A stretch of DNA of 14,298 bases, taken from UHGV virus genome UHGV-0208508. One strand, given 5' to 3'. Shown piece by piece: positions 6,295-14,298 of this stretch. This stretch comes from a virus. The first letter of the stretch is position 1. The number at the start of each line of letters is the position of its first letter. Under the pieces are notes generated by a model. It ran no database searches and was not told the DNA's origin. It was given only the letters and a program-made list of their open reading frames with translations. The translations under genes and the position numbers were made by a program.

Positions 6295-6623
6295 GAACCT
6301 ATGGCCGAAACTCTGAGGGGAAGTGGGTCCTGGTGGAAACCGACGAAAATGGGTTTAATGACTTGGTGTATTTAACCACCCTGATCCAGAATCTGAAACT
6401 GGCGCCGCAGGAGTCACCCTTTTATGCGAACAACGGAATCCCGGCCGCCGGGTCGGTGATCCAGCAAATCCTGCCGACGTATTACGTAAACCGTATTCAG
6501 AAACAGTTCAGCCAGTATTTTTCCTCGCTGCAGATTGCACTGATCAGCGACGACCCGCCTGTTTATAACATCTCGGCAATCACAAATGCAGGTTCAAAAA
6601 TAATTACACAGGTGGCCGTATGA
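6291..6623 (+). CDS. Putative baseplate wedge protein (W/gp25-like, 110 aa)
   Basis: GTG start overlapping the upstream TGA (GTGA). Size and position directly upstream of the J-like gene fit the V-W-J-I order of P2/Mu-type baseplates. Inference from synteny and size. Confidence 0.55.
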   Translation: MRTYGRNSEGKWVLVETDENGFNDLVYLTTLIQNLKLAPQESPFYANNGIPAAGSVIQQILPTYYVNRIQKQFSQYFSSLQIALISDDPPVYNISAITNAGSKIITQVAV

Positions 6624-8038
6624 GCGATTTACCAGTCAGCTATACGTCAGCAGGCCCGGTTCCTCTGACGCCGGAAGAGCTACGAGCACAGCTCGTTTCT
6701 CAGGCAATTGCGCTATCTCCGGGACTCACAACTGATTTGCCTGGATCTCTGATTGAGGACGTGGCCAGTACCGATGTCGGCGCGCTCATCGTTTGTGATC
6801 AAGCAAGGGTTGACCTGATTAACTCGGTGGGGCCACTAAAGGCTAACCTGGCCATGCTGGAGCTTCTCGCACAGCAGGCTGGTATTCCTGGGCAGAAAAC
6901 GGCTGGCACAACAACAGTCCCGGTTCAGTTTTCCGGCCCCGCGGGATTTGTTATCCCACAGGGGTTTATTGTTTCTGATGGGACCTATACCTATTCAGTC
7001 AGTGATGCGACGATTATCTCGTCGTCTGGAGTATCTGCCAGCGTATCATGCGAGGGAACGGAGACCGGGACCTGGGCGGTGCCGGTAAATACGGTTAACC
7101 AGATCATATCCAGTCTACCGTCTGACGTCACCATCACCTGCACCAACCCGATCGCCGGCACTCCGGGTGCTGACCCGGAAACGAACTATCAGTTTCGTGA
7201 TCGCGTATGGCAGGCGCAGATGGCCACCGTTCAGGGATATCCTGGATTTATCCGGCAATATCTCACCAGCCTTGATAACGTGCAGGCGCGCCTGGTTTCT
7301 GTCATTCAGGACGGGGATAAATGGATAGTCATGTGTGCCGGCGGTGATATTTACGATATTGCTGGCGCGCTCTATAAGTCTGCGGGGGATATCAGCCGGC
7401 TGAAAGGGTGTTCACTGAACGTAACGGGAATCACGAATGCAAATCCTGGTGTCGTCAGCACAGACCTGACTCATGGTTACACTGACGGCCAGGTTATCCG
7501 GATCACTGGCGTTACCGGGATGACGGGTATTAATGACGTCCCTCTGACCGTGACGGTACTGTCTCCTCACACGTTTTCCATCGGGATTGACACCACGTCA
7601 TCCGGGACCTGGGGAGGCGGCGGCGAGGTGACACCGAACGTCAGAAACAATACCGTGACGGTGAATGACTGGCCTGATAACTACGTGATCCCGTTCGTGA
7701 CGCCATTGCTGCAGCGGGTCACTGTGACGTATCAGTGGGGGACAGAAAGTGTTAACTACCTGACAGATGCCACGGTCGCCTCTCTGGTCTCGGCGCCTAC
7801 GATTCAGTATGTGAACGGCATATTCGCCGGGAAACCGCTGAACGTTAACAACCTGAAAGACGCATTCTTACAGGCGATTAACTCGACAATCGACATGGGG
7901 CTGATCAGCACTTTAAACGTCGTGGTCACCATCAATGGTGTGATAACACCACCGGATGCCGGGACGAATATCATCAGCGGCGATAAGTTCAGTTATTTTT
8001 ATATCGCGTCGGATGGCGTGATCGTAACAGGGGCGTAG
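6620..8038 (+). CDS. Baseplate J-like protein (472 aa)
   Basis: ATGA overlap with the upstream gene and an AGGTGG ribosome-binding site. A large protein between the W-like and I-like genes, which is the conserved position of baseplate J / gp6-type wedge proteins. Confidence 0.7.
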   Translation: MSDLPVSYTSAGPVPLTPEELRAQLVSQAIALSPGLTTDLPGSLIEDVASTDVGALIVCDQARVDLINSVGPLKANLAMLELLAQQAGIPGQKTAGTTTVPVQFSGPAGFVIPQGFIVSDGTYTYSVSDATIISSSGVSASVSCEGTETGTWAVPVNTVNQIISSLPSDVTITCTNPIAGTPGADPETNYQFRDRVWQAQMATVQGYPGFIRQYLTSLDNVQARLVSVIQDGDKWIVMCAGGDIYDIAGALYKSAGDISRLKGCSLNVTGITNANPGVVSTDLTHGYTDGQVIRITGVTGMTGINDVPLTVTVLSPHTFSIGIDTTSSGTWGGGGEVTPNVRNNTVTVNDWPDNYVIPFVTPLLQRVTVTYQWGTESVNYLTDATVASLVSAPTIQYVNGIFAGKPLNVNNLKDAFLQAINSTIDMGLISTLNVVVTINGVITPPDAGTNIISGDKFSYFYIASDGVIVTGA

Positions 8039-8039
8039 C

Positions 8040-8744
8040 ATGCTGGACGATATCATCCGGTCGTATATGTATACGCAATACAACGACGATGAAAATCTGC
8101 GGGCGTTTTTTACTGCGTATAACTCGATGGCGCAGGGCATTTATGACTGGATGGTTAATGCCAACCTGCCGATTTTCATCGGTGACTACAACACCGGAGA
8201 TCAGCTCCGGTGGATTGCCCATGGCATCTATGGCGTTTTGCCGCCGGTGATTTCCAGCAGCGATCAGCAGGAGATAGGCCCATATAACACCTTCGAATTT
8301 AACCAACTGGCATTCAATGAATACCGGGTGATTGACCAGTCGAACCAGGTTGTTGTCTCCGATGACCTTTTTAAGCGGATCATGACCTGGAATTTTTATA
8401 AAGGTGACGGCTTCTATTTCTCTATCCCATGGATAAAACGGCGTATTCTGCGGTTCCTGTTGGGAGTGAATGGCACCGATATCCTCAATGACCAGCGGTG
8501 GAGTATATCGATCCAGTTTGTGGATGGCGGGATCGTGATATCCATCTATAAGGGGCGCCGCAGGTTCACGCGGAGCGCTATCTACAACGCATCGGCCTAT
8601 AACTCCAGGAAGTACAACCAGAAGGACACGGCCTTTGTGATCACCGAGGATTTCGAGTTCGCTATTTTCTTCAAGCAGGCCATGGATAGCGGCCTGCTTC
8701 ACATGCCGTTTTACCAGTCAGTCACGGTTGAGATATTTGACTAG
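8040..8744 (+). CDS. Baseplate/tail protein I-like (234 aa)
   Basis: Starts 2 nt after the J-like stop with an AGGGGCG ribosome-binding site. Position between J-like and the tail-fiber genes matches P2 gpI / Mu gp48-type proteins. Confidence 0.6.
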   Translation: MLDDIIRSYMYTQYNDDENLRAFFTAYNSMAQGIYDWMVNANLPIFIGDYNTGDQLRWIAHGIYGVLPPVISSSDQQEIGPYNTFEFNQLAFNEYRVIDQSNQVVVSDDLFKRIMTWNFYKGDGFYFSIPWIKRRILRFLLGVNGTDILNDQRWSISIQFVDGGIVISIYKGRRRFTRSAIYNASAYNSRKYNQKDTAFVITEDFEFAIFFKQAMDSGLLHMPFYQSVTVEIFD

Positions 8745-8996
8745 GTTTTTATCTCGATTATCTATTGTTATATACAAATGAGATTTAACGCACTGACAAA
8801 TTATATGCAGCACAACTATTGATAAAAACAAAATGGATGACATTTTTATCATATCTATTGGCGGCATTCCTTGCTGAAAAAGAAATCCAAATAAAATAGT
8901 AAGCAAGGCGCAAGAAAGGAGTATTAATAAAGTAGATAGCGTTCCTAAAAGTATTTTTAAAATAGCAATAGAAGCATTATTCATAATATTCACCAT
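8718..8996 (-). CDS. Hypothetical small hydrophobic (two predicted transmembrane segments) protein encoded antisense in an AT-rich island; may be an artefact of AT-rich composition
   Basis: 92-codon minus-strand ORF, strongly hydrophobic (ASIAILKILLGTLSTLLILLSCALLTILFGFLF and MSSILFLSIVVLHIICQCV). No convincing Shine-Dalgarno sequence at the first ATG (a weak GGTG precedes the second ATG). AT-rich DNA readily yields Ile/Leu/Phe-rich ORFs by chance. Confidence 0.25.
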   Translation of the reverse strand: MVNIMNNASIAILKILLGTLSTLLILLSCALLTILFGFLFQQGMPPIDMIKMSSILFLSIVVLHIICQCVKSHLYITIDNRDKNLVKYLNRD

Positions 8997-9002
8997 TTAA
9001 AA

Positions 9003-9026
9003 GGCCGCGCTTGCGGTTTTTTTATT
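9003..9026 (+). terminator. Putative rho-independent terminator-like hairpin with T-tract (CCGC-GCTT-GCGG followed by TTTTTTT), flanked upstream by an A-run so possibly bidirectional
   Basis: Short GC stem (4-5 bp) with a tetraloop, directly followed by 7 T residues on the plus strand. It lies about 20 nt upstream of the first fiber gene's ribosome-binding site. Confidence 0.4.
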
Positions 9027-9045
9027 GCCTAATCCCGGAGGATAC

Positions 9046-11790
9046 ATGGCACTAACCCTTTTGGCTACAAACAACGCAGAAAGCACGCTGGCTTCTGCTA
9101 TCAGCGCAACCGACACGTCGCTGATCGTTAGCGCTGGAACTGGTGCCGAGTTCCCTGATGCTGTGGCAGGCGAGAGCTACTTTAAACTCACGCTCACCGA
9201 TGCCGCCACCGGCTCACAGGTTGAGATCGTGAACGTGACAGCTAAGGCTGGGGACATCTTCACGATTGAACGTGCGCAAGAAGGAACGCTGGCGCGTTCG
9301 TGGGCGGCCAACGACATGGTTGCCAACATGATGACGGCGGATACGCTGAACATTATCGCTCAATATGCCCAGCAGGCAGCTGCATCAGCAGCACAGGCTG
9401 CTGAGTATGCAGATAACGCTTCTGACTACGCACAGAATAAGTTCACGTTCTTTAAGACCGCCAGCGATCCTGATGGCACTATTGCCGGGCTGGCCGCAAC
9501 GACTGAAGGGCAGTCATTCTGGGTAGCCCAAGGTCCAGATGCGCTTTCTGCTGCATGGCAGTATCAGAATGTTGCGGGTGTAGCCGTGTTACAGGCTAAG
9601 CAGCCAGGAACAGCGGCTATAACCGGGACAATCCGCGAATTTCCCACGCTGGAGGCGGCACAGGCCGACGCCGATGCTGGCAATATTCCTACAGGTTCAA
9701 ATGCGTATTATCGAAGCGCTGACGACACAACTCTTGCGATTGAGGTAATCAACAACGCCGGTACGTTGACAGCAACCGGAAGAAAAATTCCAGCGTATTC
9801 CGCTTTGCGCAGAGGCAACATTTTATTCGACGCATTTAATGAATATTCAGCTGTTGATCCTAAGTTTGGTGCCTGGGACTGGTATCGCGGAGCTACTGTT
9901 ACATTTAGTACTACTGATGCCAACATTCCGTTACCGACTCCAGTGGCACAGTATTCCGGCGTATGGTCTGCAGATAAATATTATGACCTTGCCCGCCTGC
10001 CTGTAAGGGTAGGCGATCAATTAACCTTTTCTGTGCTGGCATGGTTTCAGGATGCCGGTGCTAAGTTCCATATATTCTGGATGTCCGCGAGCGGTACGAT
10101 AATATCCTCAAAATCCGTAACTGGACTGGCTTCAGGAATTAATGTTCCAGTTTTAACAGATATTGTTCCTGCTGGGGCGTCGTATGTACGAATTCGCGTA
10201 GAAAACACGACAACAGGATCGTTCAAGGTGGGAGCCTATGCGTCCGCTGTTGGTTCTATTCAGCCTGAATTTATTCGTGCCGCTCCTGACAAGACCTATA
10301 TGTCAGCGATTGTCTCTTCAGGCATCGCTGGCCTAACCTCGCGCGTGGATGCGTTGCAGGGGGCCATTTCTGTTGGGTATCCGTATGCAGCGACCTGGCA
10401 GGTTGGTAAATTTGTAAACCCAAATACCGGGGAAATAACAGATAATGCTGCGCTGAACTGTACCATAATTCCTCATAGTGACGGGGACGGTTGGCTGGTT
10501 ACTGCTCTCGTTACTGGATCGGCCACAGCTCTGGCTGTGTATATGAATGCGGCTGGCACAGTGCTGGGAGTGGAGGGGCGCGGAACAACAACGCCGCAGC
10601 AGTATACGAATTACCGCCTTAACGTTCCGTCGGGAACCACGCAGATCGGCATAACCGGTCGTAATTCTGCTCCAATGTCTGTTAAGAAATTGGCCGTTGT
10701 TGAAACTGCTACTGTACTGGCTAGCATCGATTCTCTCGATTCACGTGTACAGAAAATAGAAGATTCGCTGGTTTACGATTTCGTTCAGCAGGATGTCCCT
10801 ATTACGTCTGGAGCATATATAAACCGATCTACCGGTGCCGTCGTAACAAACTCTGCATTTGATTGTTCGATATTTGACTATACAACAGGAGATCGCTGGA
10901 AAGTTACGGCAAGGGTGAATGGAACGAGCGTATCACTCGCTGTATATTTTAATTCAGTGGGCACTGTCATTGGGACGGAAGGCGATGGTACATCAGCATC
11001 TGTGGATTACATTGATTATGAGCTGACGCCACCAACCGGCACTGCCAGGATAGGCATCACAACACGGGTTGCACTTCCTATAGTTGCTAAAAAATATGTC
11101 ATTGTTCCCAGCGGAAGTACAGTAAGTCCGTGGTCGGGAAAAATTATTGATGTAATGGGAGACAGCAACGTAGCCTATAACAAATGGCAACCGCTGGTTG
11201 CTAGTGAACTTGGTTGTTCTTTCCTGAACCATGGTGTTGGTGGTTCAAAGATCGCCAAACCCGATAGTTCACCGACACAAATCAGCATGTGTGACGACGC
11301 CAGGATTAATGCCCTCGATACGACGGCCACTGCCTGGATTTGTGGCCCGTGGGGGACAAATGACTGGGCGCAAAATATACCCATTGGAACTATTAGTGAC
11401 ACTGTGAATACCACGGTCTATGGTGCGCTAGTCATAATTGCACAAAAGCTTAGGGCGAGAGCACCAACCAAGCCTATTTTTTGGGTTACTCCATTCAACG
11501 GAGATTATGAAACTGGGAGGACTAGTTCATGGGTTGATGGGGAAACTAACCAATATGGCAGGGTGTCTGATTATTCTGCTGCAATTCGAGCTGTAGCTCT
11601 GCGATATGGCTTCCCATTGATTGATTTAAATGCAGATTGTGGGTGGACAAAATTTAATAGTAGTTATTTTTTGCTAACGGAAGGTGATACTAACCCTTCT
11701 CATATTCATTTAAATGATAGTGCTGGTCCAGCCAGAATTTCGGAGTTGGTAATAGATCGTTTAACGGCCCTTGCGAATTTGGCCAACTAG
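9046..11790 (+). CDS. Tail fiber / tailspike protein with C-terminal SGNH/GDSL-family hydrolase (esterase-like) domain (about 914 aa from ATG 9046)
   Basis: GGAGGA ribosome-binding site before ATG 9046. N-terminal about 105 aa is homologous to the N-terminus of the downstream fiber. An Ala/Gln-rich probable coiled-coil segment follows, then beta-rich repeats. The C-terminus carries GDS (VMGDSNV), a conserved Gly block (NHGVGGSK), GxND (WGTNDW) and a His block (NPSHIHLND). Confidence 0.85.
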   Translation: MALTLLATNNAESTLASAISATDTSLIVSAGTGAEFPDAVAGESYFKLTLTDAATGSQVEIVNVTAKAGDIFTIERAQEGTLARSWAANDMVANMMTADTLNIIAQYAQQAAASAAQAAEYADNASDYAQNKFTFFKTASDPDGTIAGLAATTEGQSFWVAQGPDALSAAWQYQNVAGVAVLQAKQPGTAAITGTIREFPTLEAAQADADAGNIPTGSNAYYRSADDTTLAIEVINNAGTLTATGRKIPAYSALRRGNILFDAFNEYSAVDPKFGAWDWYRGATVTFSTTDANIPLPTPVAQYSGVWSADKYYDLARLPVRVGDQLTFSVLAWFQDAGAKFHIFWMSASGTIISSKSVTGLASGINVPVLTDIVPAGASYVRIRVENTTTGSFKVGAYASAVGSIQPEFIRAAPDKTYMSAIVSSGIAGLTSRVDALQGAISVGYPYAATWQVGKFVNPNTGEITDNAALNCTIIPHSDGDGWLVTALVTGSATALAVYMNAAGTVLGVEGRGTTTPQQYTNYRLNVPSGTTQIGITGRNSAPMSVKKLAVVETATVLASIDSLDSRVQKIEDSLVYDFVQQDVPITSGAYINRSTGAVVTNSAFDCSIFDYTTGDRWKVTARVNGTSVSLAVYFNSVGTVIGTEGDGTSASVDYIDYELTPPTGTARIGITTRVALPIVAKKYVIVPSGSTVSPWSGKIIDVMGDSNVAYNKWQPLVASELGCSFLNHGVGGSKIAKPDSSPTQISMCDDARINALDTTATAWICGPWGTNDWAQNIPIGTISDTVNTTVYGALVIIAQKLRARAPTKPIFWVTPFNGDYETGRTSSWVDGETNQYGRVSDYSAAIRAVALRYGFPLIDLNADCGWTKFNSSYFLLTEGDTNPSHIHLNDSAGPARISELVIDRLTALANLAN
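10405..11106 (+). repeat. Two tandem homologous domain repeats of about 100 codons each inside the first fiber gene (about 10405-10701 and 10810-11106), diverged at nucleotide level
   Basis: Protein-level alignment by eye: GWLVTALVTGSATALAVYMNAAGTVLGVEGRGTTTPQQYTNYRLNVPSGTTQIGITGR versus RWKVTARVNGTSVSLAVYFNSVGTVIGTEGDGTSASVDYIDYELTPPTGTARIGITTR. Confidence 0.6.
11131..11787 (+). other. SGNH/GDSL hydrolase-like catalytic domain at the C-terminus of the first fiber (predicted catalytic Ser codon at 11164-11166)
   Basis: Ordered motif blocks typical of SGNH hydrolases: GDS near the domain start, a conserved Gly, GxND, and a C-terminal Asp/His block. Assigned from motif order only, with no profile search. 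Confidence 0.6.
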
Positions 11791-11865
11791 ATATTTATTG
11801 TCTTTGAAGTGAGGCTATTTCTGCGATGTTTATTCTGATAATTCCATTATTTAACAGGGGTATAT

Positions 11866-12897
11866 ATGGCGCTTAAGCTATTAGCCAATAATAACGCAAA
11901 GAGTGTTCTCGCTGCGGGTATTAGCGCGTCCGCTACCGTTATTACCGTGGGTACCGGAGCGGGGGCTTTATTCCCTTCCCCTGTATCTGGACAGAGTTAT
12001 TTCAAATTAACGATAACCGACGCGGCCACGAAAACAATTTCTGAAATTATGCACGTCACGTCTGTATCCGGTGACGTGATGACAGTAATTCGTGGTCAGG
12101 AAGGAACTACGGCACGCGTATGGTCAACAAATGACATTGTCGCGAATCTAATGACAGCCGGATCATTGTTATCGTTCCTGCAGATCAGTAATAACCTGTC
12201 AGAAATTAAAGATGCCGGTGATGATGCGGTAAATGAAGCCCGTTATAACCTCGGAATATCTGATTCCTCTGGTTTTGTCGGGCGTTCACTTGGCGCTCCA
12301 AAAGTTTTCTATGCAAACGGAACCTATACGCGATCTCCTCTGGCCCGTTATGCAAAAGTAACGTTGACCGGTGCCGGTGGCGGCGGTGGCGGCTGCCAGG
12401 CATCTAATAACACCGAAACCTTTTCCGGTGCCGGCGGCGGCGCGGGTGCGACCATTATCGTATGGGTTGACCTGTCTGCTGCCAGTTCTTACGCGATTAC
12501 TGTCGGCAAGGGTGGTAAGGGCGGAGTTGGCGCAGTAAGTGGTGCGGATGGTGGTGCTACCTCGTTTGCCAGCCTGTTCTCAGCTCCTGGCGGGAAAGGC
12601 GGCGTGAAGTCAGGCGTGTCCAATACCGCCGGCGGCGCCGGAGGTACGGCGGCGACCGGAGATATCAGGATCAACGGTGGTACCGGCTCAGATGGACAGA
12701 CAGGCTCAAGCCTTCTGACGGGAAACGGCGGGGCGTCGTATTTTGGCGGCGGTGGCCGGGCGGGTTCTCAGGCCGGTATTGCTGGCGCAGCTCCCGGATC
12801 CGGTGGTGGTGGCGCGTATGACCTTGGGTTTACCGGTACGGCATTTACCGGTGGTGATGGTGCTACTGGCATGGCGATCGTGGAAGAATTCGCGTAA
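11866..12897 (+). CDS. Second tail fiber / receptor-binding protein with glycine-rich C-terminal domain (343 aa)
   Basis: AGGGG ribosome-binding site before ATG 11866. N-terminal about 105 aa aligns with the first fiber N-terminus (MALxLLAxNNAxSxLAxxISAxxT...SYFKLTxTDAAT...QEGTxAR.W..ND.VAN.MTA). The C-terminal about 180 aa are dominated by GG/GGG/GGGG motifs separated by short variable segments. Confidence 0.8.
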   Translation: MALKLLANNNAKSVLAAGISASATVITVGTGAGALFPSPVSGQSYFKLTITDAATKTISEIMHVTSVSGDVMTVIRGQEGTTARVWSTNDIVANLMTAGSLLSFLQISNNLSEIKDAGDDAVNEARYNLGISDSSGFVGRSLGAPKVFYANGTYTRSPLARYAKVTLTGAGGGGGGCQASNNTETFSGAGGGAGATIIVWVDLSAASSYAITVGKGGKGGVGAVSGADGGATSFASLFSAPGGKGGVKSGVSNTAGGAGGTAATGDIRINGGTGSDGQTGSSLLTGNGGASYFGGGGRAGSQAGIAGAAPGSGGGGAYDLGFTGTAFTGGDGATGMAIVEEFA

Positions 12898-12901
12898 TGG
12901 C

Positions 12902-14062
12902 TTACACTCCTGCACGACCATCGATGTAATCAGCCCACCACTGCATCATTTCTCTGCGCTTATCTAGATACTGAGCATGGTTGTAAATACCGCGCACAGA
13001 TCCGCCGTTGGCATGTGCCAGCTGCACTTCAATAGCGTCAGCAGGCCATTCGTGCTCGTTCATAATCGTGCTGAATTCATGCCTGAATCCGTGACCGCTT
13101 TCCAGACCCTCATAGCCGATTTGTTTGATCACAAGCAGTACCGCATTCTCGCAGATTGGCTTCTTCTTATCGTTGCGCCCGGCAAAAACAAACTCTGAGA
13201 CTGGTTTGGTGATTGAGCTTAGCGTAGTGAGAAGTTCAACCACCTGGTCTGACATAGGAACAACATGAATCTTGCGGCCCTTCATCACACTGGCGTCGAT
13301 AGTGATAATCCTGTTTTCAAAATCGACGTTCTTCCATAGCATGGAACGAAGCTCTTTTGTTCTGAGGGCTGTGTAGCGTAAAACTTTGGTCGCAATGAGC
13401 GATACGATACTTCCTGAAAATGTTGCCAGTGCTTTGTTGAATGCAGGGATCTGGTCTGCTGGGAGAAACGGGAAGTTCTTCTTGCGGTATCCCTTCATGG
13501 CGTCAGCAAGGTCAGGTGCCGGGTTATATTTAGCCCTTCCGGTGACAATAGCGTAACGGAAAACCTCGCCGCATCTTCTGCGTGCTTTGTTGGCTCGCTC
13601 CATTGCACCGCGATCTTCAAATCTGCGGATTACTTCCAGCAGTTGCATCGGCTCAATATCCTGAATTTCAAGGCCGCCGATGATAGGTAAAATGTCGTCA
13701 TCAAACATTTTTGCAAGTTCAGTTGCATACCCTACTGACCATACTTGCTTCTTGTGCTCGTACCATTCTTTGTAAATCGCACTAAAGGAATTGTTGTTAG
13801 ACGAAGCCTTTTTCGCTTTTACCGGATCGATGCCAACCGAGATGTCTTTCCTCGCGGTCCATGCTTTATCTCTTGCCTCCTGCAAAGTCATAAGCGGATA
13901 TTTTCCGACGGTCAGGATTTTCTCCTTACCGTCAATCTTGTAGCGAAGCTGCCATACCTTTTTCCCTGACACAGGGACATAAAGGTACAGGCCATTACCA
14001 TCGAGTAGGCGGTATGGTTTTTCTTTCGGCTTTGCTGCTTCAATCTGCTTAACGGTGAGCAT
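12902..14062 (-). CDS. Phage integrase, tyrosine recombinase of the P4/IntS-like family (386 aa from the ATG at 14060-14062; an in-frame GTG at 14096-14098 would add 12 codons)
   Basis: 398-codon minus-strand ORF with C-terminal catalytic-domain signatures (HGFRHEF for His-x-x-Arg, and RGIYNHAQY with the presumptive catalytic Tyr) and an N-terminal arm-type DNA-binding region. It lies about 125-160 bp from a co-oriented tRNA gene, the canonical integrase-tRNA arrangement. Confidence 0.9.
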   Translation of the reverse strand: MLTVKQIEAAKPKEKPYRLLDGNGLYLYVPVSGKKVWQLRYKIDGKEKILTVGKYPLMTLQEARDKAWTARKDISVGIDPVKAKKASSNNNSFSAIYKEWYEHKKQVWSVGYATELAKMFDDDILPIIGGLEIQDIEPMQLLEVIRRFEDRGAMERANKARRRCGEVFRYAIVTGRAKYNPAPDLADAMKGYRKKNFPFLPADQIPAFNKALATFSGSIVSLIATKVLRYTALRTKELRSMLWKNVDFENRIITIDASVMKGRKIHVVPMSDQVVELLTTLSSITKPVSEFVFAGRNDKKKPICENAVLLVIKQIGYEGLESGHGFRHEFSTIMNEHEWPADAIEVQLAHANGGSVRGIYNHAQYLDKRREMMQWWADYIDGRAGV

Positions 14063-14223
14063 GGGTAAAAATCCGGTGGGTAAAATTATTTTATCCACTT
14101 TTTACCCGTCATGGAGTGCGGCTGTCAACGATCTGACGCGAACCATTACGAACTGTGAATCTACGGAAGGCTTGATATTCAGGGGATTTTGCGGACTGGT
14201 ACGGATGGGAGCGAACTGATAAA

Positions 14224-14298
14224 TGGTGTCCCCTGCAGGAATCGAACCTGCAATTAGCCCTTAGGAGGGGCTCGTTATATCCATTTAACTAAGAGGAC
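14224..14298 (-). tRNA. argW: tRNA-Arg (anticodon CCU), 75 nt including 3' CCA; its 5' end coincides with the window edge
   Basis: The reverse complement reads GTCCTCTTAGTTAAATGGATATAACGAGCCCCTCCTAAGGGCTAATTGCAGGTTCGATTCCTGCAGGGGACACCA. It folds as a cloverleaf with a 7 bp acceptor stem (GTCCTCT/AGGGGAC), T-arm GCAGG-TTCGATT-CCTGC, and anticodon loop CUCCUAA (anticodon CCU). It matches my recollection of enterobacterial argW. Confidence 0.88.

Follow-up and report, generated by a model that had tools for sequence, protein, structure and literature searches.

The window analysed here, a stretch of 14,298 nucleotides (nt) from the virus genome UHGV-0208508, carries genes for the tail and baseplate of a temperate phage whose tail is contractile. 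Among these are two consecutive fibre genes, A and B, whose products share an N-terminal anchor domain and carry unrelated distal modules. We consider it fairly probable that A and B are co-expressed structural receptor-binding proteins (RBPs) of a temperate myophage with a Pam3-like baseplate, that their homologous anchors occupy two non-equivalent sites per wedge and that their tips are exchangeable. Observed were the homology of the anchors, the domain content of both proteins, their conservation pattern, the obligatory co-occurrence of the two genes and the exchange of modules. The parts of the two proteins, as delimited by BLASTP, Pfam, AlphaFold2 (AF2) models and Foldseek, are as follows.

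9046..9360, + strand: fibre A anchor, A-type, residues 1-105 (BLASTP against B, match to PDB 8JOV)
9361..9810, + strand: fibre A stem, residues 106-255, semi-conserved; a helix (98-130), then two small alpha/beta modules (134-250) in the AF2 model
9898..11100, + strand: fibre A, three beta-sandwiches resembling carbohydrate-binding modules (CBMs), residues ~285-402, 444-549 and 578-685 (AF2, Foldseek)
11131..11790, + strand: fibre A, predicted C-terminal SGNH/GDSL esterase domain (Pfam PF13472, PDB matches, motifs)
11866..12180, + strand: fibre B anchor, B-type, residues 1-105 (BLASTP against A, match to 8JOV)
12181..12282, + strand: fibre B short helical linker, residues 106-139 (helices at 111-128 in the AF2 model)
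12283..12897, + strand: fibre B distal module, TNF-like and polyglycine-rich (Gly_rich_2; Pfam, AF2, Foldseek)

A common anchor and different tips

Gene A extends from 9046 to 11790 (914 amino acids, aa); the ATG at 9046 is its best start, with GGAGG at 9037-9041, and RefSeq proteins of 914 aa are 100% identical to its product. Gene B occupies positions 11866-12897 (343 aa), with its ATG at 11866 and AGGGG at 11856-11860. BLASTP aligned residues 1-101 of the two proteins without gaps (59/101 identical, 58%; 76% positives; E = 1e-32), and outside these residues the next best segment was not significant (E = 5.3). The DNA encoding the anchors is 59% identical (179/303) with a longest exact run of 8 nt, and its identity by codon position is 64%, 82% and 31% for the first, second and third. 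Synonymous sites are saturated (proportion of synonymous differences pS = 0.825; non-synonymous divergence dN = 0.33), and the DNA repeat finder run on the window did not detect the pair. We read the two anchors as an old duplication under purifying selection and not as the outcome of a recent gene conversion. An earlier note on this DNA had given the right coordinates for the pair (9046-12897). Its estimate that the first 105 residues or so align at about half identity survived the significance test, and it was likewise right that the corresponding DNA is diverged and that the downstream parts, beta-rich repeats and an SGNH esterase-like domain in A and a glycine-rich domain in B, are unrelated.

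The earlier note had also called the shared segment an N-terminal anchor, which is now supported by homology to a fibre of known structure. Chain 1 of PDB entry 8JOV, a "putative tail fiber protein" (439 aa, 18 chains), matches residues 8-119 of A at E = 2.8e-10 (phmmer), and the anchor of B matches it at E = 1.4e-7 (phmmer against PDB). The fragment printed for 8JOV is an exact substring of gp76 of the Ralstonia podophage GP4, likewise of 439 aa, and the 18 chains imply six trimers. GP4 gp76 reportedly forms six fibres on the tail nozzle. Since 8JOV was absent among the top 50 Foldseek matches listed for the AF2 model of either fibre, this link is one of sequence.

The same segment proved to be widespread. 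A profile search with the anchor against 1.84 billion proteins (E up to 0.001) returned 16,816 representative clusters at 50% identity; in nearly all of the best 150 of these 16,816 clusters the match lies at residues 1-104, in proteins of 85-876 aa. This exhaustive search and full-length searches replaced a word-indexed search, in which the 110-aa anchor had given just 13 short fragments. As the profile matches so many clusters, and at the N-terminus, the anchor is a very common N-terminal fibre module. In the Pfam scan of A and B no family covered it. Its matches among the PHROGs are 6427, 8469, 25419 and 30299, of which 8469 and 30299 are tail-fibre families, and in fibre A the PHROG matches span residues 64-268. 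By its sequence distribution, then, the anchor is a large uncatalogued domain family, and the nearly constant position at residue 1 supports a role as N-terminal fibre attachment domain. By tblastn we found it at 183 places in 143 of 50,697 phage records; two or three copies per genome occur in GP4-like Ralstonia phages, Bcep22-like Burkholderia phages, Itty13, PdC23 and Chronis, and multiple copies also in DC1. In GP4 itself, gp76 and its neighbour gp75 are 47% identical over 102 N-terminal aa (E = 8e-30) and have unrelated distal parts (locus L089, 4596-6888), so that a tandem pair with a shared anchor is not unique to the window. GP4 gp77, just upstream of gp76, has 93 aa, the same size as the "tail-fiber adapter" described for that phage.

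Behind its anchor, fibre A is modelled by AF2 with a mean predicted local distance difference test score (pLDDT) of 69. The three sandwiches, parted by helices at residues 416-441 and 555-573, reach 80-94; the anchor is beta-rich at residues ~10-77 with 60-79, and confidence in the SGNH domain is only moderate. The second and third sandwiches, each with its preceding helix, are a tandem duplication (residues ~454-552 against 589-687, 44% identical, E = 1.6e-31; 10375-11100). Foldseek matched fibre A with CBMs, Cry-toxin domains, the SGNH hydrolases 3dc7 and 7bxd, and segments of two tailspike proteins (TSPs), CBA120 TSP4 and Klebsiella K2-2 TSP. The C-terminus is a predicted SGNH/GDSL hydrolase: PF13472 covers residues 706-891 (38.5 bits, cut-off 32.9), the two hydrolases seen by fold are also found by sequence (7bxd at E = 7e-10), and the motifs GDS (705-707), GVGGS (730), GTND (770) and SHIH (885-888) are present.

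Fibre B ends in a module of another kind. PF21722 (Gly_rich_2) matches residues 153-340 (52.5 bits, cut-off 24.3), residues 150-343 contain 30% glycine, and the AF2 model (mean pLDDT 78) exceeds 90 over residues 140-343. Foldseek placed this tip with the Pam3 fibre (7ypx, E = 3e-8; 7yfw, 1e-6), the tail tip of mycobacteriophage Bxb1 (9d93, 1e-7) and the glycine-rich domain of ALK/LTK. Both kinds of distal part occur behind other N-termini, that of A behind a lambda-stf-type N-terminus (PF08400) and that of B behind P2-H-type N-termini (PF12571/PF03406) in Serratia, Morganella and E. coli; B-type anchors elsewhere carry gp53-like_C (PF21882) or Collar (PF07484) tips.

Relatives of the window and proposed docking of the anchors

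The tail modules of the Klebsiella phages vB_Kpn_Chronis (Chronis) and RothC/RothD are 93-95% identical to the window (megablast), and the J and I proteins of this lineage are 98-99% identical to those of the window. These phages are founding members of the proposed family Felixviridae, RothC/RothD being placed in Nakavirus (PMC12629751; bioRxiv 10.1101/2024.12.02.626457). Its sequence places the window at the tail-gene end of a Felixviridae prophage of the Chronis / RothC-D lineage; E. coli assemblies contain an annotated protein identical to fibre A. The published conserved structural core of Felixviridae stops at the I-like gene, which precedes gene A:

8040..8744, + strand: I-like peripheral wedge protein, 234 aa, last gene of the conserved Felixviridae core, after the Baseplate_J gene (phrog_8212)

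This protein is 94-100% identical across the relatives with two fibres and found no sequence match in PDB at E up to 10. By analogy with gp23 of Pam3, it is presumed to be the docking partner of the fibre anchors.

We fetched 80 loci from IMG/VR via the I-like protein and scored their anchor-bearing open reading frames (ORFs). The close clade (I-like at least 94% identical) has 39 loci, including the window, Chronis, RothC and two loci fetched via B-type homologues. An A-type fibre is present in 39/39, and a B-type fibre in all 29 loci with enough downstream DNA; the other 10 contigs end at most 724 nt after A. Of the two options raised by the earlier note, alternative or co-assembled fibres, the second fits better, since none of the 29 relatives that could be scored lacks either gene. 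A sister clade (I-like ~66% identical) has exactly one anchor-bearing fibre, even with at least 8 kb of downstream DNA, and a third clade (60-64%) has two. In the sister clade the I-like gene is followed immediately by the single fibre gene. A search for an additional docking domain in the J and I proteins of dual-fibre clades found none; both proteins have equal lengths in clades with one and with two fibres.

In a neighbour-joining tree the anchors of first-position and second-position fibres fall into separate clades. Among the 101 anchor positions, 51 are fixed and common to both types and 19 are fixed but different between A and B; at these 19 diagnostic positions the sister-clade anchor is A-like at 7, B-like at 6 and different from both at 6. 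Conservation falls along the proteins. For 31 distinct A-type fibres the mean pairwise identity is 0.93-0.99 over residues 1-105, about 0.6 at 106-255 and below 0.13 beyond 255; for 25 distinct B-type fibres it is 0.79-0.96 over residues 1-105 and 0.4-0.6 in the next region. Within the close clade the I-like protein is 97.6% and the anchor 96.8% identical, and residues 256-355 only 22%. The distal parts form 18 unrelated groups in the 32 complete A genes and 6 in the 29 B genes. Together with the occurrence of the same modules behind other N-termini, these figures substantiate the earlier proposal of a hotspot for module swapping.

RothC gp28 has been flagged as a likely RBP (PMC12629751; bioRxiv 10.1101/2024.12.02.626457), and the last gene of RothC before the integrase is 55% identical to B. 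For RothD gp33, PMC12629751 reports a rare polyglycine-rich domain, calls the protein a short tail fibre and places its gene last in the lysogen. As gp33 holds that place and the RothC equivalent is 55% identical to B, it sits at the position of B, and we take it to be the counterpart of B on sequence grounds. DNA similar to B was found in 73 of 5,426 complete E. coli genomes; the comparison of these 73 with 43 genomes that have an A-type anchor, which would leave B without A in some, is unreliable since the anchor query is short for megablast.

Where the anchors dock is suggested by Pam3. Its 12 fibres use two docking sites on the I-type subunit (gp23) of each wedge, alternately up and down (PMC9942802), and the core proteins of RothD are structurally similar to the Pam3 assembly (PMC12629751). 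For this reason, and because the paralogous anchors are ancient and conserved within each lineage, we favour two non-equivalent docking sites. The earlier note had supposed a single baseplate site for both fibres. If A and B competed for one shared site, mosaic virions or particles with different fibre sets would result; the clear homology of the anchors with its 51 shared fixed positions, the same length and architecture of J and I in clades with one and two fibres, and the intermediate anchor of the single-fibre clade would fit this. However, the anchors have kept to two types, each conserved by itself, in every one of the 29 relatives that could be scored, with saturated synonymous divergence and 19 fixed differences, which competition would not obviously maintain. 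Moreover, the equal lengths of J and I do not favour one site, because a wedge of the Pam3 type offers two sites per unit without any extra domain. We therefore regard a single shared site as unlikely.

With two sites, the system might work as follows; the attachment to the I-like protein, the two sites, the stoichiometry, the substrates and the division of labour are what we infer. The anchor of about 105 residues would fix a trimer to the tail, and all distal sequence would be an exchangeable cassette. The A and B anchors would plug into two non-equivalent docking sites per wedge, like the up and down sites of Pam3 gp23, giving 6 + 6 fibres on each virion and no competition for one site; in the single-fibre clade one protein would fill the socket or sockets. 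Fibre A would be the enzymatic one, long and tailspike-like (anchor, coiled coil, stem modules, three sandwiches, SGNH domain); its probable role is to bind a surface polysaccharide, either O-antigen or capsule, and remove O-acyl groups from it. Fibre B would be short, its TNF-like/polyglycine tip probably binding lipopolysaccharide (LPS) or an outer-membrane protein, and it may give the committing signal. If there are indeed two sockets, the system is a compact model of a minimal contractile baseplate carrying two RBPs; otherwise it is one more case of modular multi-RBP phage design.

A more specific version can be put forward tentatively, although we give it less than even chances. The anchor paralogues would have subfunctionalised to the "up" and "down" sockets, six enzymatic spikes and six polyglycine fibres would alternate in a fixed manner, and the single-fibre clade would represent an ancestral state of 12 copies of one fibre. 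If so, this would be the first 12-fibre minimal baseplate split between two RBPs by anchor divergence alone, and the 19 diagnostic residues would form a simple address code by which a small temperate myophage could be engineered to carry two independent specificities.

Several points weigh against the proposed two-site arrangement and the roles given to the fibres. For Felixviridae we infer the I-like attachment and the 6 + 6 arrangement by analogy. The anchors and the I-like protein contain no cysteine, and the Pam3 fibre anchors by an alpha-helical N-domain and disulfide bonds; since the anchor here is beta-rich and cysteine-free, the docking chemistry must differ from that of Pam3. The identity of the first-fibre anchor tracks that of the I-like protein over all loci (Spearman 0.81), a correlation confounded by shared ancestry. 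The anchor of B has a pLDDT below 50 in the AF2 monomer, and that of A is also poorly modelled (60-79), which probably reflects an obligate trimer. In the predicted hydrolase, the usual Asp position of SGNH block V aligns with Ser885. Finally, OZ035751 "PDP110P1" and OZ035745 "PDP110P2" each have a gene B whose product, with the anchor, is 98.8% identical to that of the window, and the baseplate proteins of these phages showed no BLASTP similarity to those of the window, which is hard to reconcile with a baseplate-specific anchor.

PDP110P1 (L088, 19096-27014) and PDP110P2 (L090, 2295-10029) are E. coli phages with three fibre genes each: a small glycine-rich one, a large one with an SGNH domain, and the copy of B, which is preceded by the large SGNH fibre and a UmuD-like gene. 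The large fibre shares residues 121-250 of A at 90% in PDP110P1 and residues 197-250 at 63% in PDP110P2. In the two genomes one block is (near-)identical: the large fibre's distal part, the UmuD-like gene, B, the integrase and genes further on. The wedge protein of PDP110P1 is a DUF2612 member; its hhalign alignment with the I-like family is colinear and not significant (probability 2.9%).

This pairing of B with a large SGNH fibre sharing stem residues of A, on unrelated baseplates, would suit a branched fibre in which only A sits on the baseplate and B rides on A via its N-domain, as in G7C gp66/gp63.1, the CBA120 tailspikes and KP32-type pairs; the Foldseek matches of A to segments of CBA120 TSP4 and K2-2 TSP point the same way. 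Against it, the sister clade uses a lone fibre with this anchor right after the I-like gene, so the anchor can bind the baseplate alone, and Pfam found no T4 gp10-like domain. In known branched systems the second protein has a short docking peptide only, not a full copy of the anchor, which we also count against branching here. Docking of B on the stem of A, an idea drawn from PDP110P1 and PDP110P2, was rejected: B is present in four relatives (L023, L030, L035, L036) whose A-type fibres have no 190-255 module, and in L030 the 130-195 module is absent as well. We judge a branched arrangement to be quite improbable.

It could also be asked whether B is a virion fibre at all, rather than an assembly factor, an adhesin cap or a prophage-expressed moron travelling with the integrase end. 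Its best PHROG, phrog_863, is labelled "tail fiber assembly". In relatives non-structural genes (the UmuD-like S24 peptidase) part A from B, which is the last gene before int/att, and the (near-)identical block of PDP110P1 and PDP110P2 spans the UmuD-like gene, B and the integrase; moreover, the polyglycine protein gp38 of phage S16 is a separate adhesin that caps a fibre. However, B has a complete fibre anchor at its N-terminus, the profile of phrog_863, matched at positions 309-604, has 690 positions and describes a long fibre family rather than a small chaperone, and the further PHROGs of B (phrog_6202, phrog_454) are both "tail fiber protein". By fold, the tip of B belongs with fibres that were observed in situ in Pam3 and Bxb1. 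The lone fibre of the sister clade has an anchor midway between the A and B types, which suggests that such fibres were the ancestral equipment. A tail-fibre assembly chaperone in particular is ruled out by the full anchor, the length of 343 aa, the Pam3/Bxb1-like fold of the tip and a Pfam scan of B without any chaperone family; the earlier note had named such a chaperone as the finding that would overturn it. Its view that both genes encode structural receptor-binding fibres is supported by the anchor, the tip families and the fold matches, and we hold a non-fibre role of B to be very improbable.

Genomic setting of the fibre genes

The other features of the window, from the tail module to the prophage end, are listed below.

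5' part of the tail module, before the hub and wedge genes: sheath C-terminus, tube, chaperone and 627-aa tape measure
Before the I-like gene: hub and wedge proteins, including the 472-aa Baseplate_J protein with an E1_FCCH insertion
8745..9045, no strand: AT-rich spacer (39% GC over 8501-9000) between the I-like gene and gene A, an insertion hot spot
11791..11865, + strand: A-B spacer of 75 nt with the ribosome-binding site for B
12902..14098, - strand: IntS-type tyrosine integrase, convergent with gene B, marking the prophage end, outside the fibre system
14224-14298: tRNA-Arg(CCT), adjoining the integrase

Genes A and B are the last late genes ahead of attP/int. The 75 nt between them contain no terminator-like structure (fold z = +1.2), hence the two are probably co-transcribed. 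Across the 29 loci this spacer ranges from 76 nt (the window by the script's count, the shortest) to 2643 nt, and the longer ones hold unrelated genes. Directly upstream of fibre B, many relatives have a pair encoding a 79-aa protein and a 105-aa UmuD-like S24 peptidase (L002 16315-16871; L005 7433-7989; L091 11433-11989), an odd passenger in a fibre operon which is not found in the window.

The AT-rich spacer ahead of gene A looks like a moron insertion site: in relatives its position is taken by genes for a 230-aa LprI-like protein (Chronis) or for proteins of 210 aa and 172 aa (L003, L005). In the window an unannotated antisense ORF of 92 aa (8718-8996) has two hydrophobic stretches, possibly membrane-spanning, and an A-tract/hairpin/T-tract at 8999-9022 (-14.6 kcal/mol, z = -1.7) lies about 25 nt ahead of the start of fibre A.

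Within the J-like protein (6620-8038), residues 275-338 (7442-7633) form an inserted domain that matches FCCH of the ubiquitin-activating enzyme E1 (Pfam PF16190, E = 4e-14); chains of E1/UBA6 in PDB match the insert at E = 1e-6, and it is found in all clades.

At the other end, the integrase of the window is an Sf6/HK620-like IntS beside tRNA-Arg(CCT). In E. coli ETEC4091 (L087) both fibre genes are 99.4% identical in nucleotides to those of the window and the prophage lies between ybhB and bioA, the lambda attB region, not at argW; the similarity stops at 12988, within the 3' end of intS. By this comparison the integrase module was swapped directly beside fibre B.

Comparison with known systems and significance

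Felixviridae prophages are common in gut Enterobacteriaceae (Klebsiella, E. coli) and their host range is set by the fibre cassette. With junctions near residue 105, and near 255 for A, and with both fibres always present, the cassette offers clear guidance for inferring host range from sequence and for exchanging tips in engineered phages. With the same family, locus and anchors, RothC/RothD and Chronis are the nearest known systems: their A-type fibres are RothC gp28 and Chronis gp23, and their B-type fibres RothD gp33 and Chronis gp26. They differ from the window in their distal A modules and in 1-3 kb of extra genes between the fibres; the window is the most compact (75 nt) and has the SGNH tip.

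Pam3 shares with the window a simple-baseplate gene order (hub, sheath initiator, two J-type subunits and one I-type, fibre), and the distal module of B has the fold of its fibre gp24, whose TNF-like and polyglycine module faces outward and is thought to bind the receptor (PMC9942802). In contrast to the two fibre types and the beta-rich, cysteine-free anchor found here, Pam3 places one fibre type on both sites by means of a helical disulfide anchor, and it needs a downstream chaperone, of which there is none after B. GP4 (Gervaisevirus) resembles the window in having two adjacent fibre genes with the same N-domain, 36-42% identical to the A and B anchors. It is, however, a podophage with its fibres on the tail nozzle or adaptor and not on a myophage wedge; gp76 is its long fibre, and gp75 is collar-like in look with His-rich repeats. 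The anchor domain, solved so far only in this podophage, is now extended to myophages.

Branched systems (G7C gp66/gp63.1, CBA120 TSP1-4, KP32-type) likewise have two RBPs per virion, one of them enzymatic, and exchangeable distal modules; G7C gp63.1 is an SGNH-type esterase tailspike. There, a branching domain of the first RBP receives the second through a short peptide, whereas here both have a full paralogous anchor. The invertible segments of Mu (G) and P1 (C) also give two host specificities, by joining alternative distal parts to an invariant N-terminal part of the fibre, but a DNA inversion expresses one of two tips, whereas the window has two complete genes on the + strand. An invertible alternative-fibre segment was considered for the window and rejected: the genes lie on the same strand, the longest inverted repeat is 20 nt with 80% complementarity, and there is no invertase ORF. 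For these reasons we take it that A and B are both made.

The functional model proposed for A and B, an enzymatic polysaccharide RBP next to a polyglycine fibre, has a likeness in Klebsiella phage SCNJ1-Y, in which the Pam3-gp24-like fibre TFP_Y binds LPS and triggers DNA ejection and a separate protein, Dep-Y, is the capsule depolymerase (PMC12671077). TFP_Y differs in its N-terminal domain, and a shared anchor between its two RBPs was not reported.

The window thus combines known elements, namely multi-RBP phages with conserved anchors and swapped tips, SGNH esterase tailspikes and polyglycine tips, and both proteins of this phage family had been flagged before, singly, as RBPs; the main texts searched on RothC/RothD and Chronis do not mention the shared anchor. 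What is new here is the paralogy of the anchors, their position-specific clades, the obligatory co-occurrence of the two fibres, the single-fibre sister clade and the mapped junctions.

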